From a virus (taxonomy: Duplodnaviria > Caudoviricetes), in IMG/VR virus record IMGVR_UViG_3300038479_000056, positions 1 through 54,380 of that record: a stretch of 54,380 nucleotides of DNA; one strand, given 5' to 3'. The notes beneath the pieces are model-generated. The model was not told the origin of the DNA. It ran no database searches and saw only the letters and a program-made list of their open reading frames with translations. Shown here one piece after another: positions 2,848 to 54,380 of this stretch (position 1 is the stretch's first letter; each line of letters begins with the position of its first letter). The position numbers and the translations under genes were made by a program.

Positions 2848-3552
2848 ATGACCATTCTCTTGGCGTATATTTGCGTGACTGGTGGGCCAAAGACCCACGA
2901 ACTGGCCGCGCGATTCGTCGGGTCCTACTTAACTCACCCACCAGGAATTGAACACCAAACTGTGGTTGTCTGTAATGGCGGTCCACTTTCAACTGAAACG
3001 GCCCTGTTGTTCCTGCCGCTGGACGTAAAATTTTTTCCAAGGGAAAATGACGGCGGTTGGGATGTGAGCGGATTCCAAGATGTAGCCAAGAATTTCCAGT
3101 CAGATATGCAGGTAAATTTTGGTGAGAGTTGCTACCTGCACCGCCCCGGCTGGCTTCGGCAGCTTGCTCAAGCGTGGTCTGTTTTTGGCCCTGGGTTCTA
3201 TGGCGTGTTCTCAAGTCATGCCGTTCGCGCTCACCTGAACACGAACGCTTTTATGTGCGCGCCGAAGCACTTGACTGAATATCCAGCGGTGCGGACGCAT
3301 CGTGAGCGCTATGAGTTCGAGCACGGGCCGGACGCGCTGTGGCGGCGGCTGGACAGGAAAGGGGTGCCGGTGCGGTTGGTGACCTGGGACGGGACCTGGG
3401 CCAAGGGCGACTGGCGCAAGCCGGCCAACATCCTGTCCCGTGGCACGCAGGAAAATTCCCTCGTATTTTGCATTCATAACGAGAGATACTGGGCTGCTGA
3501 TCCGGCGACGAAGCGGAAATGGGCCAGTTACAGCGATGCGCCTTTCCATTGA
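2848..3552 (+). CDS. Glycosyltransferase-like hypothetical protein
   Basis: GT-A-like pattern (VVVCNGG, RENDGGWD); stop TGA is supplied by the end of tnpB element 1. Confidence 0.5.
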   Translation: MTILLAYICVTGGPKTHELAARFVGSYLTHPPGIEHQTVVVCNGGPLSTETALLFLPLDVKFFPRENDGGWDVSGFQDVAKNFQSDMQVNFGESCYLHRPGWLRQLAQAWSVFGPGFYGVFSSHAVRAHLNTNAFMCAPKHLTEYPAVRTHRERYEFEHGPDALWRRLDRKGVPVRLVTWDGTWAKGDWRKPANILSRGTQENSLVFCIHNERYWAADPATKRKWASYSDAPFH

Positions 3553-3710
3553 CATCCTCCCCGGCCTGAAGGCGCGGGGATTCCTTGAATACAAATATGC
3601 TAGACATTTGCAGAGCTAGGTTGGTTGACACTTCGACGAGCATGGCGCGCCGAGGCCGAAGCCTTGGCGTGACTGATATGCTCTCCATGTCCTTTAACCG
3701 GCTGTCCACC
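3549..3710 (-). ncRNA. Putative omegaRNA scaffold, element 1
   Basis: Position at tnpB 3' end/right end; guide predicted from flank TGGAAAGGCGCATCGC; 5' limit approximate. Confidence 0.55.
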
Positions 3711-4892
3711 GGCAAATTGAAGAATGTTTTTCGCGGCATTCTGATCTCTGTCCAAATGCTCGCCGCAGTTTTCGCATTTGAACTCGCGCACTTCCAAACC
3801 AAGGCTGCTGTGTATGTATCCGCAGGAATTGCACCGCCTGCTGCTTGGGAAGAATCTGTCTGCTACGCGCAACTCGCGGCCATACCAGGCACACTTGTAA
3901 GTCAGCATCGAACGGAACTGCCCAAAGCTGGCGCAACTGATATGCTTTGCGAGTTTGTGGTTCTTGACCATGCCGCGCACGTTCAAGTCCTCGATGGCCA
4001 GAACATCGAACCGGCGCACCAAATCTGTGGTGAGCTTGTCCAGTGTGTCCTTCCGGCAGTTGGCGATCTTGGCGTGCAAACGAGCCACTTTCAACCGCTG
4101 CTGATTCCAACGGCCACTGCCCTTGATGCGACGGGCGAGAACCCGTTGCAATCTCGCCAGCCTTGCGGCGTGGCGGGCAGTGTGGCGTGGGTTTGCCATC
4201 CGCTCGCCGTTACTCAAGGTTGCGAGCCGACTGATTCCAAGGTCAATCCCGACCATGCTTCCTGTCTTTGGGAGCGCGGCCTTGGCTGGTTCGTCCAGAC
4301 AAAGACTCACGAAATAGCGTCCATCCCTGCCCTTGGTTATCGTGCAGGTAGTAGGCTCGCTCGCGAAACCGCGACTCCATTTGACATGAAGCCGACCGAC
4401 TTTGGAAATTGTGAGGTTGCGGTTTGCCGCATCCCATTTGAAACCGCCAGAATGGTATTCGGCGGATTGCTTGTCGTGCTTGGAAGCAAACCTTGGATAG
4501 GCTGTCCGCTTGGCAAAGAAATTGGAGAACGCAGTTTGCAAGTGCCGCAATGCCTGCTGCTGTGGGATGCTGGACGATTCACGCAGAAAAGCAAACTCGC
4601 CGGTATTACGATGTTTAGTCCAAGCCGCGCTGCTGGCGTTGTAATTGACCGGCTTGCCGTCTTTGAAGCTGTCCGTGCGGAGGCGCAAGGCAAAATTGTA
4701 GGCGTGCCTGACACAGCCGAACTCCCGCGCCAGTTGCCGCGCTTGGCGGTCTGTCGGGTAGCATCGGAATGTCATGCGAACTTTCACTTGCAAGAATCTA
4801 CTCCGTCTTGTAAGGTTTGTCCAATGCTAATTTCAACAACTGAAAAAGCCGGGCTAAAGCCACGGGGTTTTCAACCCATAAGGAATGGATAA
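3585..4892 (+). other. Full-length antisense ORF across element 1
   Basis: 435 codons, codon-aligned with tnpB; its TAA overlaps the ATG at 4892 (TAATG); translation unproven. Confidence 0.4.
3600..4793 (-). CDS. tnpB: RNA-guided endonuclease TnpB
   Basis: FRCYPT N-terminus; RuvC GIDLG / IEDL / DRDQNAA; zinc finger CNSC..CENC. Confidence 0.95.
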   Translation of the reverse strand: MQVKVRMTFRCYPTDRQARQLAREFGCVRHAYNFALRLRTDSFKDGKPVNYNASSAAWTKHRNTGEFAFLRESSSIPQQQALRHLQTAFSNFFAKRTAYPRFASKHDKQSAEYHSGGFKWDAANRNLTISKVGRLHVKWSRGFASEPTTCTITKGRDGRYFVSLCLDEPAKAALPKTGSMVGIDLGISRLATLSNGERMANPRHTARHAARLARLQRVLARRIKGSGRWNQQRLKVARLHAKIANCRKDTLDKLTTDLVRRFDVLAIEDLNVRGMVKNHKLAKHISCASFGQFRSMLTYKCAWYGRELRVADRFFPSSRRCNSCGYIHSSLGLEVREFKCENCGEHLDRDQNAAKNILQFAGGQPVKGHGEHISHAKASASARHARRSVNQPSSANV

Positions 4893-5920
4893 TGAACGAG
4901 CCTATCCACATCATCAGCCTTGGGGCTGGAGTTCAATCGTCAACCGATGCGCTCATGGTTTCAGAGGGTGAACGCGGCCCTATGGTGTTGTGTGCGATCT
5001 GTGCAGACACCAAAAGAGAGCCTGGCAGCGTGTATTTGTGGCTCGCTAAACTTTGCGGGTGCGTTGTTCAGTTTCACGCAGACGGCAGGCCGTTTGTTGA
5101 ACCTGGAATTTATTCATCCGGGATGCTCAAGTTTCCGGTTCACATCGTAACTGCCGGGGATATTGTAGAGGATGCCCTGCGCGTCCGGCAACGGCTCGAT
5201 GGCAAAGGTTCATGGGTGCCTAGTGGCGTGCCTCATTATTCGATTAACGCGGACGGAACGCACGGCCACGGGCCAAGGCAATGCACGCATGATTTCAAAA
5301 TAGTTCCCATCGAAAGAGAATTGCGCCGCTTGATCGGGCGAGAGAAAATGTCGGCATGGAGGAAAGTTCACAAAACCGCCCTCAAAGAGATTTCAAAATA
5401 TCAGAAAGCCTTGGCCATTTGGAAACGCAATAGGAAACTAGACCCACTGCTTTTGCCTCCGACGTTTCCAAGTCGTGAATTCGATGAGTGCCAAGCTGAC
5501 CCGTTAGCTATACAGCGCATTGGCATCAGCACCGATGAGGCGTCCAGAGCGAAACCTTCGCGTGTTCCTTACTTGGTTCATATCTGGCCCCACCTTGACC
5601 ACGGCACAAATAGGGATGGCTGCATTGAATGGCTGGCGAAGCGTGGATTGGAAGCTCCTAAATCCGCCTGCGAATTTTGCCCCTACCATGATGACGATGA
5701 ATGGATTTGGTTGCGGGACATGGAGCCGGAAAGTTTTGAGAGGGCGGTAAAATTTGATTACGCTTACCGAGCCGCCAAAATACAGACGGTTTCAATCAAA
5801 GGCTTTGAACCCTTCATCCACCCCAGCCGACTGCCCTTGGACAAAGTCAAATTCAAAAAGTCGCACGGCAAACAACTAACCATGTTTAACAACGAGTGCG
5901 AAGGGATGTGCGGGGTATGA
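4892..5920 (+). CDS. PAPS reductase-like / PP-loop protein
   Basis: ISLGAGVQSS PP-loop, ADT..EP, KSACEFCPY, terminal ECEGMCGV. Confidence 0.75.
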   Translation: MNEPIHIISLGAGVQSSTDALMVSEGERGPMVLCAICADTKREPGSVYLWLAKLCGCVVQFHADGRPFVEPGIYSSGMLKFPVHIVTAGDIVEDALRVRQRLDGKGSWVPSGVPHYSINADGTHGHGPRQCTHDFKIVPIERELRRLIGREKMSAWRKVHKTALKEISKYQKALAIWKRNRKLDPLLLPPTFPSREFDECQADPLAIQRIGISTDEASRAKPSRVPYLVHIWPHLDHGTNRDGCIEWLAKRGLEAPKSACEFCPYHDDDEWIWLRDMEPESFERAVKFDYAYRAAKIQTVSIKGFEPFIHPSRLPLDKVKFKKSHGKQLTMFNNECEGMCGV

Positions 5921-7187: not shown

Positions 7188-9586
7188 CAACCGCACCCAA
7201 CAAGAGTAAGAGTCAATTTATGAAATGGGACAAAGTTGGTGATGTAGAAGAAATTGTCTGGTTCTTAAGAACGAATGATTTAACCCGCGGGGCAAACCGG
7301 GAGAAGATCAACCGACTCTTTAATGGGGGACTTCCGTACAGTAAAGCGCAAGAAGCTGAAAATTCAGTTAGTGTCAACCGCAATTTCCTGACTGGCCCAA
7401 ACATTCTCACATCGGGGCGAGGTCAATGGAACAATGCTTTCCTCAAGCAAAAGACCTATTTCGGGGTCAGTCTTGATTCCGGTCCGGTCAACAAGCGGCA
7501 AGAGGCCGGGGCCATCATCACGCGCAACATCAATCGGCAGTTGAAGAAATGCCGGGCGCAGATGGAGCAAATCCGGGCCGAAGGCGCACAAGTTATTTTA
7601 CACGGTATCGCGCCTAGCGGATTTAAAGACCGGCGCTGTCCCATTCTAACGTCTTTGCCGGTTGCGAGTCTTCTTATTCCTGATGAAACTGATTTGGATT
7701 TTGAGAACCTAGAGTATTTCGCCGTATTCCGGGAATGGACGCCCTACCAACTTTACGCGCTAACGCACGGGCCGAAGGTTGATCCTGGTTGGAACATGGA
7801 AGCCGTCCAAGCTGAGTGGGATTATGTTAAAGAACAGACCCGAAAAGAATTGCCCGGTAGCAACACCTTGCAATTTATGCCTGAAAGAATAATGGAGCTT
7901 GAAAAACAGGCTGCTCTTTGGGGCACAACCGCCGTGCCGACGGTGGACGTGTGGGATTTCTACTTTCGCGAGGCTGAGGACGGGCAAGGTTGGTATCGGC
8001 GCATCATGCTGGATTGGGGCGCGGCTGAGGGCGGTCTGAACGCGAACAGCGCCCAGCCTGAGAGCCGAAACGGAGCAGGCGAAAAAGATTACGGCGGGTT
8101 TCTTTACACCAGCGGCCAGCGTAAGTACGCCAACAGCCTGAGCGAGATTTTACAGTGCCAATTTGGGGATTGCAGCGCTGTGGCGCCGTTCAAGTATCAT
8201 TCCGTGCGGAGCCTGGGCTGGCTGCTGTGGGGCGTGTGCGAGATCGAGAACCGGTTGCGCTGCCGATTCACCGAAAACATGTTTATGAACATGATGTGGT
8301 GGTTTAAGTGCGCCAGCGGCGGGGACATGGCGCGGGTCAAGAAAGCCATGTTCGAGCAGATCGGGGTCATTCCCGCCGGCATAACGATGATGACGGAGAA
8401 CGAACGGTTTAAGCCCGACGAAAAGTTGTGGGCGGTTATGGTGGAGCAGATTGAAAAAACCATGAATCAAAGCGCGGGATCGTTCATGGGCAACCCGGCT
8501 GACATTGGCAAGGAAGAGACAGCCACGGGCACAATGGCGCGCGTTCACAGCGTTGGCCAGATGATGGGGGGGATGCTGACACTGGCCTACGAATACAGCA
8601 AATACAAGTATCAGGAACAGAGCCGCCGGTTCTGCATCAAAAACAGCCCGTATCAGATGGTGAAAGATTTTCGGCTGGCTTGCCTCAAAGACGGCCTGGA
8701 CGCGGAAATGCTGGATTCGAGCCGGTGGAACATCGAGCCAGACCGGGCTTTGGGCGACGGCAATAAGATTTTGGAAATGGCCATCGCGCAAGGTCTGGAA
8801 AACATCAGGAAAAACGCGACACCGGACGGGCAACGGCTCATTGACCATCAGTACGTCGTGACGCTGACGGACCGGCCCGACCTGGCCGAGGCGCTTTTTC
8901 CATTGCAAGGCCAGAAGAAGCTCAGTCCGAGCAGTCACGACGCGCAACTGGCCGCCGACAGGATTCTGCGCGGGCTGCAATTCGCCATTCCGTCCGAGGC
9001 CGTGCCGGAAGATTACGTCATGGTCTGGCTGGGCGACATGGCGGCCGTCATCAAGCAGATTCAAGGGACGGGCAACGTCGGCACGATGCCGGAACTTTTG
9101 GGCCTGGCCAACCTGGGCCAGCACATCGGGCAAGCCATTGGCCTGATGGCGAGCGGGCATGGCAAGGAGCCGGGGCACGGCCAGAAACGGGGCGAGGCCG
9201 AGGACATGCACAAGATCAAGCAGTATAAGGACGCCCTGGGCAAGATGATGAACCTGGTCAAAGGCTTCGCGCAACGGCTCCAAGAGCAGCAGCAAAAGGG
9301 CAACGGGCACGGACTCGACCCGGAGAAGATGGCCAATATTCAGACCGATCAAATGAAGGTCAAGGCCAAAATTCAACTTGGTCAGGAGAGCCACGCGGCC
9401 AAGACCGCGCAGCGGCAGGCTGCATTTGAGCTTGAGCAACGGCGGAAAGACCGTGAAAGCGAGGCGGAAACCCGGCGCCAGAATCAGCGGACGGGCCAGG
9501 AGATCGCGCATAAACACCTGGACAAACTGCTGGACGCCCACCACCGAATGCTGGGCGAAGGCGACGAAAGGACTCAACAGGATTAA
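7184..9586 (+). CDS. Putative portal protein
   Basis: About 800 aa; lies between terL and scaffold/capsid; ETAT motif; Gln-rich coiled-coil tail; ATGA-coupled start. Confidence 0.65.
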   Translation: MTTAPNKSKSQFMKWDKVGDVEEIVWFLRTNDLTRGANREKINRLFNGGLPYSKAQEAENSVSVNRNFLTGPNILTSGRGQWNNAFLKQKTYFGVSLDSGPVNKRQEAGAIITRNINRQLKKCRAQMEQIRAEGAQVILHGIAPSGFKDRRCPILTSLPVASLLIPDETDLDFENLEYFAVFREWTPYQLYALTHGPKVDPGWNMEAVQAEWDYVKEQTRKELPGSNTLQFMPERIMELEKQAALWGTTAVPTVDVWDFYFREAEDGQGWYRRIMLDWGAAEGGLNANSAQPESRNGAGEKDYGGFLYTSGQRKYANSLSEILQCQFGDCSAVAPFKYHSVRSLGWLLWGVCEIENRLRCRFTENMFMNMMWWFKCASGGDMARVKKAMFEQIGVIPAGITMMTENERFKPDEKLWAVMVEQIEKTMNQSAGSFMGNPADIGKEETATGTMARVHSVGQMMGGMLTLAYEYSKYKYQEQSRRFCIKNSPYQMVKDFRLACLKDGLDAEMLDSSRWNIEPDRALGDGNKILEMAIAQGLENIRKNATPDGQRLIDHQYVVTLTDRPDLAEALFPLQGQKKLSPSSHDAQLAADRILRGLQFAIPSEAVPEDYVMVWLGDMAAVIKQIQGTGNVGTMPELLGLANLGQHIGQAIGLMASGHGKEPGHGQKRGEAEDMHKIKQYKDALGKMMNLVKGFAQRLQEQQQKGNGHGLDPEKMANIQTDQMKVKAKIQLGQESHAAKTAQRQAAFELEQRRKDRESEAETRRQNQRTGQEIAHKHLDKLLDAHHRMLGEGDERTQQD

Positions 9587-9740
9587 AGTTCCCCGGCCTA
9601 AAGGCACGGGGATTTAGCCGAGTCCTTCACCAACACCAAATCGCCATGCGGAACGCACGATTCAGAGTCAATATCGACAGACCCGATGCTTTTAGCGGCT
9701 TTAATGCTCGCCGTCTCCGAAGCGTTGCACGCTATGGAGA
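9583..9740 (-). ncRNA. Putative omegaRNA scaffold, element 2
   Basis: Overlaps tnpB 3' end and right-end hairpin; guide predicted TCCTGTTGAGTCCTTT; 5' limit approximate. Confidence 0.5.
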
Positions 9741-10779
9741 CAGACCGCGCCCGGATGTTCTTCGAGGCTTGGCGGTCTGCGTCGTCCTTGTGGCCGCACT
9801 TCTGACAACAGAAGCGCAAGCCTTTCCGGTTCGATGCCGAGACATGGCCGCAGGCACTACACCCACGGCTTGTGTTGCGGGGGCTGACGGACTCCAATTC
9901 GATTCCGACAGCAGCAGCCTTATAGGCGATCTTGAATCGCATATCGGCATACGGCCAGCGGTGAACTTTGGAACGGAGGTCTTTCCCCTTGCTCAGAGAA
10001 CTGTCTCGAATGTTCTCCAAGTTCTCGACCACGATGCGCCTTGCTCCAACCTCAACCGCGTAGCTGACCAGTGCCTTACTTGCCGTGTGGAGCAAGTGCG
10101 CGGTTACGGCAGCCTCATGCCCGGACATCCTTCGCAGGAGCCTCCGGGCACTTCTGGTGCCAACCGACTGGACAGCGGCGCGGGTGCGCCGGATACAAGA
10201 ACGACGGTGATTCAACACCCCGCCGTGGAAGAAAAATGGTTTGGCGTTTGCCGAGTTGGTAGCGACCAGCATTCGCTTGATGCCGAAATCACAGCCGACA
10301 ATGCAGCCCTCGGACTTCGGTTCGGGAATCTCGACTTCGTGAGCCAAGCAGAGAAACCACTGGTTGCCTATACGCTTGATCTTGGAGTCTTTCCAGTCGC
10401 CCTCTGGCAGTGGGCGGGAATCCACGACGGTCAGAAGTTCCCCCCAAAGTGTGATGCCTTTTTTGGTGCGATTGAAATCCCGCTTCCATACCGTCGGGAT
10501 AACGGCACGGGAAAACTTCGCAAGCCTCCAACGCTTGTTCGCCTTGGCGGTCTTGTAGGTGGCGCAGACGGTTTTGCAGAGGGAGCAGGCAAGTTGGGAA
10601 GGCAGCCCCATCTCTCGGAGGTTGGCGTAGTGAGCTTTTGCCAGTCGATTCGAGTTCAACTCCTCGGTCTTGAAGGCAATATCGGAAAGCCAGTTTGCAG
10701 CTTTCAGCCAAACAGCAAGCAATCCGTCAGCTTTTGTGCTGCCGGAAATCTTGAGCTTGACTGTGCGGATTGCTTTCAC
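9598..10779 (-). CDS. tnpB: RNA-guided endonuclease TnpB
   Basis: RTVKLK N-terminus; GCDFG / VVENL / DADRQAS; CSAC..CQKC. Confidence 0.95.
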   Translation of the reverse strand: MKAIRTVKLKISGSTKADGLLAVWLKAANWLSDIAFKTEELNSNRLAKAHYANLREMGLPSQLACSLCKTVCATYKTAKANKRWRLAKFSRAVIPTVWKRDFNRTKKGITLWGELLTVVDSRPLPEGDWKDSKIKRIGNQWFLCLAHEVEIPEPKSEGCIVGCDFGIKRMLVATNSANAKPFFFHGGVLNHRRSCIRRTRAAVQSVGTRSARRLLRRMSGHEAAVTAHLLHTASKALVSYAVEVGARRIVVENLENIRDSSLSKGKDLRSKVHRWPYADMRFKIAYKAAAVGIELESVSPRNTSRGCSACGHVSASNRKGLRFCCQKCGHKDDADRQASKNIRARSVSIACNASETASIKAAKSIGSVDIDSESCVPHGDLVLVKDSAKSPCL

Positions 10780-10787
10780 TACATTGA

Positions 10788-10816
10788 AGGCTACTACAAA
10801 GAAAAAACAATGTCAA
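10788..10816 (-). promoter_or_regulatory. Sigma70-like promoter of tnpB2
   Basis: TTGACA-17-TAGCCT ending about 9 nt before the GTG. Confidence 0.55.
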
Positions 10817-10845
10817 CCGAATTGCGAAGCGTGAAAAACAAATAA
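10810..10845 (+). pseudogene. tnpA: Putative tnpA N-terminal stub
   Basis: MSTELRSVKNK, divergent from tnpB; matches MSNELR of element 4. Confidence 0.45.
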
Positions 10846-45177: not shown

Positions 45178-45226
45178 TTCTTGACTATTCCCTACGCCTT
45201 TTGGCAGGATTAGCAACAAGAAAGAT

Positions 45227-45255
45227 GCGCCGCCGGGCCTGTAACCCAGCGGCGC
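45227..45255 (-). terminator. Terminator-like hairpin
   Basis: GCGCCGCTGGG..CCCGGCGGCGC followed by ATCTTTCTT on the minus strand. Confidence 0.55.
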
Positions 45256-45278
45256 GAAACTAACTATGAGCTTCGAGC

Positions 45279-46526
45279 TTACGCCCGAGTACTTGGCCAG
45301 TCAACAAATAACGGCAGGGAATCCCGCCATTGATGGTGGGAGGAATTGCCGCCCTTGACAAACTGTGTTTTATTTTCTGTATTTGAATAATGACAGTGAC
45401 GGTCCAATTGAAACTGATGCCCGATGCGGCGACCGCCGCATCGATGGAGGCCACTTTGCGGGCGTGCAACGGGGCGGCTGACTGGCTTTCGGAGCGCGCC
45501 TGGGGCAACCGGAAATTCGGGCAGTTCGCTTTGCAATCCGCTTTCTACAAGGACATTCGGGCAATGTTTAACATCGGGGCGCAGGCATCCTGCTTGATCT
45601 GCGCTAAAGTGGCCGATGCCTACAAACTCGACACCGAAACGCAGCGGACCTTCCGACCTTTGGGCAGCATCGCCTACGATGTCCGTAATTTGAAAATTCA
45701 CATTGAGAAGCGCGTGGCCTCGATCTGGACCATTGACGCTCGGTGCAAGGTTCCATTTCAGTGCGGCGATTACCAGGTTGATCTGCTCCGCAAAGGTCTG
45801 ATAAAGCAATCCGACCTCGTGCGCCGCCGGGATGGCCGATGGTTCCTGATGGTTTCTGTGACGCTTCCAGACACCGAGGAGTTGAAAGTGACCGACATTT
45901 TGGGCGTGGACCTGGGCATCGCTGTCATAGCCGCCGATTCGGACGGCAACAAATACTCCGGCTCCAAGTTGAATAAAATCCGGCACAGGAACAAATCGTT
46001 GCGCCGGAAGTTGCAGCGCAAAGGGACCAAGTCGGCCAAGCGGCTGTTGAAAAAGAGGAGCGCAAAAGAGGCTCGCTTCGCCCGTGACTGCAATCATGTT
46101 ATTTCCAAGAAGCTCGTATCGCTGGCTAAACGCACCAACCGCGCCATTGCACTCGAAGAACTCGACGGCATTGGCCGGAGGATAAGGGTTAGAAAAAGTC
46201 AGCGATACGGGTTGCATAGCTGGGCTTTCGCGCAACTGGGCCAGTTCACCCGTTACAAGGCCGCGATAGCAGGAGTGCCGGTGATCTTCATTGACCCGCA
46301 CTATACATCCCAGCGATGCAGCCAATGCGGCCACACCTCCAGAGCCAACCGCAAAACGCGGTCGGAATTTCTCTGCCAGAAGTGCGGCCATGCGTCCCAT
46401 GCGGACACAAACGGTTCGCTGAACATTAGGGCCTTGGGCCTGGACGTTCTGCGAACGGGCGCTTTCATACGCCCATACGCGGAGGCCACTACCTATGCCA
46501 ACTGACATGGGCTTATCCATCTGCAA
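45279..46526 (-). other. Full-length antisense ORF across element 3
   Basis: 415 codons, codon-aligned; stops shortly before the terminator; translation unproven. Confidence 0.35.
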
Positions 46527-46551
46527 TCCCGCCGTTCACGGTGGGTCTATG
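45305..46551 (+). mobile_element. IS200/IS605-family non-autonomous tnpB element 3 (ends approximate)
   Basis: Matching subterminal hairpins ATCCCGCCATTGATGGTGGG (left) and ATCCCGCCGTTCACGGTGGG (right); TTGACA at 45355. Confidence 0.75.
45390..46505 (+). CDS. tnpB: RNA-guided endonuclease TnpB
   Basis: TVQLKL; GVDLG / ALEEL / HADTNG; CSQC..CQKC. Confidence 0.95.
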   Translation: MTVTVQLKLMPDAATAASMEATLRACNGAADWLSERAWGNRKFGQFALQSAFYKDIRAMFNIGAQASCLICAKVADAYKLDTETQRTFRPLGSIAYDVRNLKIHIEKRVASIWTIDARCKVPFQCGDYQVDLLRKGLIKQSDLVRRRDGRWFLMVSVTLPDTEELKVTDILGVDLGIAVIAADSDGNKYSGSKLNKIRHRNKSLRRKLQRKGTKSAKRLLKKRSAKEARFARDCNHVISKKLVSLAKRTNRAIALEELDGIGRRIRVRKSQRYGLHSWAFAQLGQFTRYKAAIAGVPVIFIDPHYTSQRCSQCGHTSRANRKTRSEFLCQKCGHASHADTNGSLNIRALGLDVLRTGAFIRPYAEATTYAN

Positions 46552-46581
46552 AAAACGAGGCTATCCCACCAAAACGAGGCT

Positions 46582-46848
46582 CTAGGATGGCTCAGGCCGT
46601 ATCTGGAGTGCCTGGGTAAGTGTCTCGTAAGCCATTCCTACCCTGCCCTGTTCCAGTTCCGACACCGCCTCGATGATGGCCCCGCGCAGCCTGTCCTCGG
46701 TTGTAATCCTGACCAGCGGCAGGCCCGCCGCAGCCAGATTTTCGTTCAGGCCGATGGTGGCCGCGAACCGTGGCCGGTCCTCTCGCGCGTCTTCCTGGTC
46801 CTGGGCCAGCACCGCCGCATCTAATTCCTCCCATTCTTTGGTGTTCAT
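46582..46848 (-). CDS. Hypothetical protein
   Basis: ATGA-coupled to the helicase. Confidence 0.6.
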   Translation of the reverse strand: MNTKEWEELDAAVLAQDQEDAREDRPRFAATIGLNENLAAAGLPLVRITTEDRLRGAIIEAVSELEQGRVGMAYETLTQALQIRPEPS

Positions 46849-53045: not shown

Positions 53046-53080
53046 ACACTGTGATTATTTCTACGAAGCTCGTTTGACAT
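53042..53080 (-). pseudogene. tnpA: Putative tnpA N-terminal stub
   Basis: MSNELRRNNHSV resembles Y1 transposase N-termini (..RxxHSVY..); divergent from tnpB. Confidence 0.55.
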
Positions 53081-54253
53081 ATTCAATCCTTTGAATATAT
53101 TAAGCGAGTGAAGTTGACTGTTCAAGTGAAACTTTTGCCGACGCCAGAACAATCGAAGGCGTTGCGCGAAACTCTGGAGTTGGCGAATCAAGCGGCATGT
53201 CGTCTGTCGGAACTGTGCTGGGAAAAGAAGGAGTTTCGCCAGTTCCCAATGCACCGTTTGTTCTACAAACAGATTCGCAGTGAGTTCGATTTGTCCTCTC
53301 AGGTTGTTGTCCGCCTTAACTCCAAGGTTGCTGACGCCTACAAGCTGGACGAGAAGACGCAACGCACTTTTCGCAAGCACGGCAGCATTTCCTACGACGC
53401 TCGCATTCTTGATTTCCAACTTCCTGCCTCGACCGTGAGCATCTGGACTGTGAGAGGAAGGTTGAAACATATTCAGTTTGTCTGTGGCGAGCGCCAGCGT
53501 AAGCTGCTGGAACTTCCGAAAGGCGAGAGCGATTTGGTTCTGCGTGACCGCAAGTGGTATCTCAACGTGACCGTGGACGTGCCAGAGGAACGCGAACAGG
53601 AAGTTGTTGGCTGGCTTGGCATCGACCTTGGACTGGTGAACCTCGCGCAGAGTTCCGACGGGCAGACATTCGGTGACGCTCGCAAGACAGCCGGTATTCG
53701 CGCTCGGCGATGGCGGCAGAGAAAGCGACTTCAAAAGAAAGGCACGCGCAAGGCCAAGCGCATCCTGCACCGGCTCAGTGGACGGGAACAAAGATTTATG
53801 CGGGACGTGAATCACGTCGTCGCCAAACAGATTTGCGGTGTTGCTAAACGCACGAATCGAGGGATTGCCTTGGAAGATTTGAAAGGTATTCGTTCGAGGA
53901 TCAGGGCTAACCGAAAGCAACGCCGCATCCTGCACTCGTGGGCCTTCGCGGATCTCCAAGCGAAGATTGCCTACAAGGGCAGGCTTATCGGAGTGCCGGT
54001 CAAACTCGTTGACCCTCGCAACACCAGCCGGACTTGTCCGGCCTGCGGCAGTGTCAGTAAGAAGAACCGGCCCACACGCGATAAGTTCGCGTGCCAGTCG
54101 TGCGGGTTTACCGCCGATGCCGATACCAACGCAGCGGGAAACATTTCTCGCCGGGGTGCCTTCAATCACCCGCACGTAACGGAAATTAGTTGTGGCAAAA
54201 TCCATGACCGTATCCAGTTACAATCCCCATCCCTTCAGGGAGGGGTAATTGAA
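53046..54253 (+). mobile_element. IS200/IS605-family non-autonomous tnpB element 4
   Basis: Right-end hairpin CCCCATCCCTTCAGGGAGGGG then TAATTGAA; right junction fixed (+/-1 nt) by the empty allele at 64-68; preceded by TCAT. Confidence 0.8.
53074..53101 (+). promoter_or_regulatory. Sigma70-like promoter, leaderless tnpB4
   Basis: TTGACA-16-TATATT; GTG begins 7 nt after the -10 box. Confidence 0.65.
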
Positions 54254-54259
54254 CTTTAA
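53108..54259 (+). CDS. tnpB: RNA-guided endonuclease TnpB
   Basis: TVQVKLLPT; GIDLG / ALEDL / DADTNAA; CPAC..CQSC; stop codon lies in the flank. Confidence 0.95.
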   Translation: MKLTVQVKLLPTPEQSKALRETLELANQAACRLSELCWEKKEFRQFPMHRLFYKQIRSEFDLSSQVVVRLNSKVADAYKLDEKTQRTFRKHGSISYDARILDFQLPASTVSIWTVRGRLKHIQFVCGERQRKLLELPKGESDLVLRDRKWYLNVTVDVPEEREQEVVGWLGIDLGLVNLAQSSDGQTFGDARKTAGIRARRWRQRKRLQKKGTRKAKRILHRLSGREQRFMRDVNHVVAKQICGVAKRTNRGIALEDLKGIRSRIRANRKQRRILHSWAFADLQAKIAYKGRLIGVPVKLVDPRNTSRTCPACGSVSKKNRPTRDKFACQSCGFTADADTNAAGNISRRGAFNHPHVTEISCGKIHDRIQLQSPSLQGGVIEL

Positions 54260-54380
54260 ATATAACGTGTGGTGGCCGGAGGGCGCGTCTGCCCTTGAGA
54301 TCGAGCGCGAGTGCATTCGGCAGGGAGGCCGCTGGACGGTCAAAGGCAAGGAGCGCGGGGCGGGGTTGTTCGAGCATTTC
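54249..54380 (+). CDS. terL: terL 5' end, element-containing allele (TTG start)
   Basis: GGAGG then TTG AAC TTT AAA TAT, in frame with terL. Confidence 0.6.
   Translation, partial: MNFKYNVWWPEGASALEIERECIRQGGRWTVKGKERGAGLFEHF
54254..54380 (+). repeat. 127-nt exact repeat, copy 2 (circular closure)
   Basis: Identical to 68-194. Confidence 0.95.

Follow-up and report, generated by a model that had tools for sequence, protein, structure and literature searches.

Stop-codon replacement by an antisense TnpB-only element in a phage operon, and a stop-free frame opposite its tnpB gene

TnpB elements, the ancestors of Cas12, are very common, and their persistence in genomes with almost no spare DNA is poorly explained. 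The window considered here, which is the whole 54,380-bp IMG/VR virus record IMGVR_UViG_3300038479_000056 (Caudoviricetes; 96% complete by CheckV, 56% GC), carries four of them, Elements 1-4, which together take up about 9% of this 54-kb phage genome, and no transposase gene. The main subject is Element 1, an insertion sequence (IS) of the IS200/IS605 family that lies antisense between two phage genes read from the plus strand, one encoding a 234-amino-acid (aa) protein to which no Pfam or PHROG family could be assigned and the other a PAPS-reductase-like protein (Table 1). The upstream open reading frame (ORF) is closed by CCT TTC CAT TGA at 3541-3552, and ATAATG stands at 4889-4894 on the far side of the element, the ATG at 4892 opening the next ORF. 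An earlier note, made from the letters alone, had reconstructed the empty site as CCT TTC CA|A TAA TG and the filled end as CCT TTC CA|T TGA, so that only the last residue would change, from Q to H; it had also proposed TTAT, read ATAA on the coding strand, as the transposon-adjacent motif (TAM), and TCAA, read TTGA, as the motif of the opposite end.

The empty allele exists as DNA. Contigs from four public runs (X13, X17, X19, and X20) were aligned to 3200-5200, and those of three runs, X19 (1,560 nucleotides, nt), X17 (1,083 nt), and X13 (70 nt), join 3548 directly to 4889, skipping 1,340 bases that start with TT and end with GG; run X20 gave no empty joint. The joint reads CCA|ATAATG and is unambiguous, since no letter fits both sides, and there is no target-site duplication. 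No differences are listed within about 190 nt of the joint in the empty contigs, in which TTAT directly abuts the right-end flank. Parts of Element 1 are without cover in X17, X19, and X20, and run X13 carries both the filled and the empty form. The same two alleles are found among proteins: the 234-aa protein falls in a 90%-identity cluster of 12, half of which end in APFQ and the other half in APFH, and residue 234 (Q or H) is the sole difference between P0122 (21 contigs) and P0121, the form of the window (16 contigs). A differing junction in an empty allele had been set beforehand as the refutation of the reconstruction, and the junction found equals the predicted one, with TCAA (TTGA on the coding strand) present both in the window and at the boundary that the empty allele defines. 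Other routes to relatives gave little, as neither an IMG/VR scan with the 234-aa gene nor an exact search for the 24-nt left-flank pattern returned anything, L010, which holds the closest relative of the downstream gene (77% identity), lacks synteny, and a metagenome scan yielded one locus, L015, which is a filled allele.

These data confirm the observation of the earlier note and support its interpretation. Element 1 is very probably a non-autonomous IS200/IS605 insertion, antisense in a phage operon, whose A|TAA target and T-TGA end regenerate the host stop codon with Q234H. It would insert without duplication immediately 3' of TTAT, which the host coding strand reads as A|TAA, so that one class of target is the last base of a final codon together with its TAA stop. 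The other end would finish in TCAA, read as T and TGA on the host strand, so that a stop is restored where the old one stood and the last codon is altered in its third base alone (CAA to CAT). With the filled and the empty allele both recovered from the same environments, there is base-level proof that fixed end motifs allow an element to be seated within a stop codon while altering no more than one residue. The description of the insertion as nearly scarless holds for the upstream protein, and the claim is limited to that protein, not extended to the expression of the downstream gene. With respect to the latter, the outermost bases of the left end read AAGGA on the host strand (4880-4884), 7 nt ahead of the downstream ATG; the empty allele has no Shine-Dalgarno-like motif of this kind there, and its ATG overlaps the stop (TAATG). 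The left-end contig of run X13 differs from the window at 4897-4898, in codons 2-3 of the downstream gene, and the empty-allele contig does not; this change could be a marker linked to the filled allele.

Element 1 is a new member of the TnpB-only IS200/IS605 elements. Its TnpB matches OrfB_IS605, Cas12f1-like_TNB, and HTH_OrfB_IS605 in Pfam (the core, the zinc-ribbon, and the N-terminal helix-turn-helix, with E-values of 2.8e-30, 2e-23, and 1.6e-13, respectively) and aligns over its full length with ISDra2 TnpB (8h1j, 8exa; E 2.4e-59), its GIDLGI, AIEDL, and DRDQNAAKNI segments falling in the D/E/D catalytic columns. Both ends, of which the right is 51 nt long and the left 95 nt, have the subterminal imperfect hairpins that, in place of terminal inverted repeats, are expected of the family (as DNA folds), and at the right end the hairpin is followed by a 5-nt linker, GGATG, and then the terminal TCAA. 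This type of right-end hairpin also stands beside TnpB genes that are just 28-41% identical. What is missing from the set of family features is tnpA alone: the whole 54-kb record has no match to PF01797, the Y1 (HUH) transposase TnpA, and Element 1 is therefore non-autonomous (IS1341-type). The Rfam scan of the window gave no family at the gathering threshold, the group I intron included, which rules out an IStron; no terminator-like site was found on either strand within 3300-5100.

Table 1. Positions of Elements 1-4 and of the features around Element 1 in the window
Feature	Position	Strand	Remarks
Host phage gene, 234 aa	2848-3552	+	Last codon CAT and stop TGA straddle the junction
Putative omega-RNA guide template, flank by the right end	3529-3548	-	Antisense to the last codons of the host gene; position after the IS200/IS605 TnpB model in the available parts of PMC10055086 and 10.1101/2025.02.20.638934
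Candidate omega-RNA region, tnpB 3' end through right end	3540-3685	-	Weak hint, Rfam HgcC
Element 1, TnpB-only IS200/IS605-family, 1,340 bp	3549-4888	-	Stretch skipped by the empty-allele contigs
Right-end terminal TCAA	3549-3552	-	Plus strand: T (third base of the last codon), then TGA (new stop)
Right-end subterminal imperfect hairpin	3558-3580	-	Fold -9.5 kcal/mol, z -1.97
Codon-aligned antisense open frame, 435 codons	3585-4892	+	Starts 33 nt past the donated stop, ends at the original TAA
tnpB of Element 1, 397 aa, RNA-guided nuclease (by family)	3600-4793	-	Pfam and ISDra2 TnpB match
Promoter-like site upstream of tnpB	4795-4823	-	TGGACA, 17 nt, TAGATT; consensus scan only
Left-end subterminal imperfect hairpin	4841-4873 (core 4849-4865)	-	Fold -9.5 kcal/mol, z -2.70
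TTAT transposon-adjacent motif	4889-4892	-	Plus strand: A, then TAA, the original stop of the host gene
Downstream phage gene, 342 aa, PAPS-reductase-like	4892-5920	+	phrog_424, E 1.1e-24; ATG overlaps the original TAA (TAATG)
Element 2, TnpB-only	9583-10841	-	Same geometry; right end TTAA reads T + TAA; TTAT at 10842-10845
tnpB of Element 2	9598-10779	-	
Element 3	about 45220-46560		
tnpB of Element 3	45390-46505	+	
Element 4	about 53048-54258		
tnpB of Element 4	53108-54259	+	

The boundaries of Element 1 and its TTAT motif are further supported by copies of its two ends in other surroundings. In other phage contigs, foreign flanks start directly after ...GTCAA, and the terminal 37 nt of the right end are found in many contigs with differing sequence on either side; a second copy of the left end (X17 record 15) has a foreign flank and keeps ATAA up to 4892. 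The proposed TAM is thereby found beside the left end not only in the window and in this re-flanked copy, but also in the related loci L033 and L039 and in Element 2. A 98%-identical copy of Element 1 in another phage (L033/L037/L041/L042) has lost the left-end hairpin, compared with window 4838-4888, by deletion between two TTGAAA repeats, and now begins at a TTAT that lies within Element 1's left end in the window. This copy, probably immobile for TnpA, still closes a 146-codon nuclease-like gene.

Element 2 repeats the arrangement in the same genome. Its right end has the same hairpin, followed by ACT and TTAA; the upstream gene, of 800 aa, reads CAG GA|T TAA, and TTAT stands just before the next ATG. 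In the 20-member cluster of the 800-aa protein, 13 of the 15 members listed end in E and two, including that of the window, in D, and the last residue is the sole difference between P0132 and P0146 and likewise between P0144 and P0134; an IMG/VR scan with this protein gave nothing. The left end of Element 2 has no hairpin (10780-10841; fold z -0.42) and looks truncated, to judge by sequence, at a TTAT whose counterpart in the relatives L040 and L036 is internal.

Beyond the window, an IMG/VR scan for the right-end hairpin returned 13 loci, representing eight distinct sites, which with the two of the window make 10 independent insertions. In seven of these 10, the donated stop (TGA from TCAA, or TAA from TTAA) closes an antisense frame that is 113 to 868 codons long, and three of the five such frames outside the window match phage protein families near the C-terminus. 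The left-end motifs fall into two classes: TTAT in Element 1, L033, L039, and Element 2, and T-TCAT, before a conserved left-end start, in L034, L040, and L036. On the host strand TCAT is ATGA, a common overlap of stop and start. The bases 5' of the left hairpin were considered as the cause of the difference between TTAT and TCAT, following the pairing rule of IS608, but AAAA fits TTAT and GAAA does not clearly fit TCAT, and the idea was dropped. A relaxed hairpin pattern matched at least 120 stretches; among the 131 candidate sites in the stretches listed, 12 had a TnpB upstream and these were all familiar ones, and an IMG/VR scan with the TnpB of Element 3 found nothing. Nine bacterial loci of the genome collection contain relatives (26-52% identity); the full-length seven among them (30-52%) served as comparators and were set aside, having other, not comparable right ends, and one of them, L022, interrupts a response-regulator gene.

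The same geometry is present in well-known phages. From the top 15 of 429 matching GenBank phage records, six loci were taken, one per host genus. In four of them, Gifsy-1, Klebsiella phage ZCKp20p, Pseudomonas phage 5399, and Alicyclobacillus phage KKP_3916, tnpB lies antisense between operon genes, and the convergent gene has as its annotated stop the TCA of the terminal TCAA. In Thermobifida phage P1312 the TCAA end is present, but an annotated antisense coding sequence spans the whole element, and in Mycobacterium phage Lizziana tnpB is in the sense orientation. The Gifsy-1 element splits its host gene as ...TCA CG|T TGA, the other flank being CTG|ATGA GCAAACAC; at the homologous gpZ/gpU junction of Fels-1, which is without the element, the sequence is ...ACC CGA TGA ACAAACAC, with an ATGA overlap. 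A search of the phage collection for a true empty allele of the Gifsy-1 element found just this Fels-1 homologue, at 77% identity. Two annotations are of note here: gipA (Gifsy-1, L161, 2875-4165), which has long carried the label of a Peyer's-patch virulence factor, encodes the TnpB of an insertion sequence, and a 472-aa "hypothetical protein" of P1312 (L166, 2384-3802) is the antisense frame of a tnpB element, ending on the TGA of the TCAT/ATGA junction.

Stop sites are few among the possible targets. A census of TTAT in the window, on both strands and outside the four elements, counted 220 sites, of which 10 lie on an antisense in-frame stop (the two occupied ones included) and 15 outside genes. 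For two of the elements of the window to occupy such sites has a p of about 0.002, and seven of the 10 hairpin-sharing insertions against the all-site rate a p of about 4e-8; chance landing is excluded. A single stop replaced by luck is conceivable with 10 suitable sites among 220, but two of two in the window, the seven of 10 across phages, and the same geometry in four named GenBank phages leave random landing at TTAT with next to no probability as an explanation. The picture changes when the comparison is restricted to tolerable sites, of which stop sites are 10 of 25, or about 40%, against which seven of 10 gives p = 0.055. Given that insertions elsewhere in a densely coding genome would destroy genes and be lost, the excess at stop sites is probably mainly survivorship.

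Could the motifs nevertheless have evolved as a safe-harbour device, with target (TTAT/TCAT) and end (TCAA/TTAA) selected to regenerate a stop, so that the elements specialise in operon stops or stop/start junctions? This is less likely than not, though several facts are in keeping with it: both motif classes hold the reverse complement of a stop in the right register in all 10 hairpin-sharing elements and the four GenBank cases, seven of 10 exceeds the 40% or so expected, and the stop-free antisense frame described below is another apparent adaptation of this phage's elements to being read backwards. The excess over the tolerable-site expectation, however, is not significant, and the end tetranucleotides are constrained by cleavage-site recognition by TnpA, so that, with TTAC/TCAA in IS608, the motifs may be inherited chemistry; other family members have motifs that contain no stop, such as TTGAT of ISDra2. 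The plain reading combines known transposon chemistry with purifying selection on a compact genome; a purpose-built device is less likely.

Regeneration of the host stop by an arriving element has several points against it. Three of the 10 insertions (L032, L039, and L036) close no gene, the frames there being only 2, 16, and 9 codons long; the left-end boundaries and motifs of L034, L040, L036, L043, and Element 4 come from sequence comparison and not from empty alleles; the empty allele of Element 2 was seen as protein, not as DNA; the TTAT census used a crude gene call (greedy longest ORFs); and the guide RNA is a candidate only, accompanied by the HgcC match (RF00062, 3540-3685, minus strand) alone, which scores 19.8 bits where the gathering score is 50 (E 0.025). 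Moreover, two alleles alone cannot tell insertion from seamless excision. According to the available part of 10.1101/2025.02.20.638934, excision of IS200/IS605 elements restores the original site exactly, and both histories leave the same sequence, so that the Q-ending alleles might be secondary excisions from an ancestrally filled phage. This is nonetheless improbable. The 234-aa protein has 125 homologues, and 58 of the 120 listed end in PFx at the same position (PFK 28, PFR 20, PFQ 5, PFH 1); distant homologues with no sign of the element thus support this position as the natural end of the protein, and PFH is found in one of 120. In any case, the geometry is the same under either history.

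How Element 1 came to this site, having no tnpA, may be answered in two ways: TnpA could have acted in trans, or empty phage genomes could have been cut by TnpB and its guide RNA and the element copied in by recombination. For the first route, a related phage element, L040 (also L031), encodes, next to a divergent tnpA (Y1_Tnp, E 2.8e-33), a TnpB with 96% identity to that of Element 2, and it shares the right-end hairpin with the elements of the window. Since this hairpin also accompanies TnpBs 38-41% identical to that of Element 1, one type of TnpA could mobilise all of them in trans. In L040 the antisense frame of tnpB is open, too, and in frame with tnpA for 549 codons. For the second route, the homing model set out in the available parts of PMC10055086 and 10.1101/2025.02.20.638934 has the TAM together with the right-end flank in an empty site as the substrate of TnpB and its guide. 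TTAT abuts the right-end flank in the empty allele, which by that published model would make it a substrate of Element 1's own TnpB-guide complex. The element is likely to spread by being copied, during co-infection, into empty genomes that have been cut, which could be the reason that filled and empty forms coexist in the same samples.

A second feature of these elements concerns the strand opposite tnpB. Each of the four tnpB genes of the window has a long codon-aligned antisense ORF. TTA, CTA, and TCA, the sole codons that give a stop in this frame, occur 0, 0, 0, and 1 times in the 397, 393, 371, and 383 codons of Elements 1-4, Element 1 having none of the three, which is one in 1,544 codons as against 15.5 per 1,000 in the phage genes (182 of 11,746 codons in 30 genes, each with at least one). 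The probability of finding none in a tnpB gene under the synonymous usage of this phage is 0.0003-0.0013. In the remaining four frames of the tnpB genes there are 7-19 stops, which is the level of phage genes. A is used in the third position to an equal extent (14.2% in tnpB and 14.8% in phage genes), and ATA, AGA, CGA, GTA, and other NNA codons are used normally; thus, neither GC content nor general codon optimisation explains the gap. Among relatives, L033, L034, L040, and L036 have no TTA, CTA, or TCA codon, and L032, L039, and L043 have 2, 3, and 6. The antisense product of Element 1 belongs to no Pfam family, but 23 database proteins (277-432 aa) are 44-96% identical to it, so the frame is open across the clade. 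In Elements 1 and 2 it continues through the non-coding left end and stops on the original TAA, which overlaps the next ATG as TAATG in Element 1 and lies 4 nt before it in Element 2; in Element 4 it stops on a TGA that overlaps a minus-strand ATG.

It may be that codons read as stops from the opposite strand have been purged from these tnpB genes, with the length of the left end placing the original host stop, within TTAT or TCAT, in the antisense frame. A ribosome that ends the upstream gene at the donated stop could then restart inside the element, translate a "bridge" of about 400 codons, and end on the original stop; as this overlaps or abuts the start of the next gene, translational coupling would be restored and transcriptional polarity avoided. 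That the TnpB elements of this lineage are adapted to backward reading by host ribosomes, the bridging frame preserving coupling, is proposed tentatively from codon usage and frame position and rated distinctly below even. If it is true, the insertion would be harmless at the level of the whole operon, which would explain how four TnpB elements, at about 9% of the genome, persist without a transposase while spreading between co-infecting phages by guide-RNA homing. Functionless "shadow" ORFs arising from codon bias are not far short of an even chance. Two phage genes are nearly free of TTA, CTA, and TCA as well (1 of 474 and 1 of 234 codons), as are the TnpB genes of high-GC phages, with no statistical significance (P1312, 0 of 368; Lizziana, 1 of 445), and there are 7-19 of these codons in the elements that donate a stop in Gifsy-1, ZCKp20p, phage 5399, and KKP_3916, so that an open frame is not needed for tolerance everywhere. 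Codon bias has more difficulty with the specificity of the depletion, in which third-base A is unchanged and other rare NNA codons are kept, with its improbability gene by gene, with its presence in tnpB genes of three lineages (26-45% pairwise identity among the four TnpBs of the window), and with the continuation of the frame through the non-coding left ends of Elements 1 and 2 to the original TAA. The open antisense frame is an added feature, statistically strong and unexplained.

The other two elements differ in their placement. Beyond the right-end hairpin of Element 3, the 11-mer AAAACGAGGCT occurs twice, 20 nt apart (46545-46584), just before the TAG stop (46582-46584) of a convergent minus-strand gene, and the element seems to sit a few bases outside that stop rather than inside it. 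The right end of Element 4 abuts a repeat, the last 127 bases of the window (54254-54380) repeating 68-194; the first 67 bases are unique within the window. In the related contig L015 (1-260), a different sequence, one absent from the window, precedes the terminase, and the left flank of Element 4 has no match there. From these sequences, the assembly seems to be a composite of variants that do and do not carry Element 4 upstream of the terminase gene, which would not be a simple insertion. A transfer RNA scan of the window found none.

In the portions of the literature available to a search, neither the donation of a stop by IS200/IS605 ends nor an antisense frame left open in tnpB was described, and an earlier description is possible. 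Stop donation is largely a predictable outcome of known transposon chemistry under selection, and antisense, stop-replacing insertion seems to be a frequent solution that lets such elements reside in densely packed phage genomes without doing harm, the same trick being seen in phages as well known as Gifsy-1. In annotation, where a convergent tnpB adjoins a gene, the gene's C-terminal residue and stop may be part of the transposon. That TTA, CTA, and TCA have specifically been lost from four unrelated tnpB genes of one phage is new and lends itself to a clean test; should the reverse frame be translated, a selfish element would have a means of escaping polar effects that needs no splicing.

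In the architecture of its ends, on which alone the likeness is based, Element 1 resembles IS608 of Helicobacter pylori, which has TTAC as target, TCAA as end, and the same hairpin spacing: some 19-21 nt separate the target tetranucleotide from the left hairpin that follows it, TCAA comes some 10 nt after the right hairpin, and GAAT stands just 5' of the latter. Element 1 differs in having TTAT instead of TTAC and in lacking tnpA. The resemblance of the motif pair argues that the motifs were inherited, not invented for stop donation. In ISDra2 the target motif is TTGAT, in contrast to TTAT of Element 1, which is also without tnpA, lies antisense in a phage operon, and has a tnpB free of TTA, CTA, and TCA. 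With ISDra2 (PDB 8h1j, 8exa, 8bf8) and the IS1341-type elements it shares a full-length TnpB, the D/E/D columns, subterminal hairpins, the absence of target duplication, and a fixed left motif. TnpB2 of ISGst2 from Geobacillus stearothermophilus has a tested TAM, TTTAT, that contains the TTAT of Element 1, and the two are likened by this motif and by the same homing model (Meers et al., PMC10055086, available part); stop codons are not mentioned in that part of the text.

A counterpart in another phage is the gipA element of Gifsy-1 (NC_010392.1, AF246666.1), which is TnpB-only, encodes a TnpB 48.6% identical to that of Element 1, and lies antisense between the homologues of the tail genes gpZ and gpU. 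Its right end, consisting of a hairpin, AGCAG, and TCAA, gives gpZ its TGA, where the Fels-1 homologue without the element has CGA TGA. Its motif is TCAT (ATGA overlap) instead of TTAT, and its tnpB has 14 TTA, CTA, or TCA codons among 376, so that the antisense frame is closed. IStrons, which combine IS605 or IS607 with a group I intron, are, as far as the partly available accounts go, another harmless route for TnpB-bearing elements inside genes; the harmlessness of Element 1 comes from location, not from splicing. The reverse reading itself has parallels in other replicons, again from accounts available in part: in ambigrammatic narnaviruses a reverse codon-aligned frame is kept free of stops over a whole gene, as in the tnpB genes of the window, and in the ShiLan "hidden HNH" insertion of phage methylases a selfish nuclease gene runs backwards while the host frame stays open. 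These are different molecules, and in the element described here the host gene is instead closed by a donated stop, after which a separate antisense frame follows.

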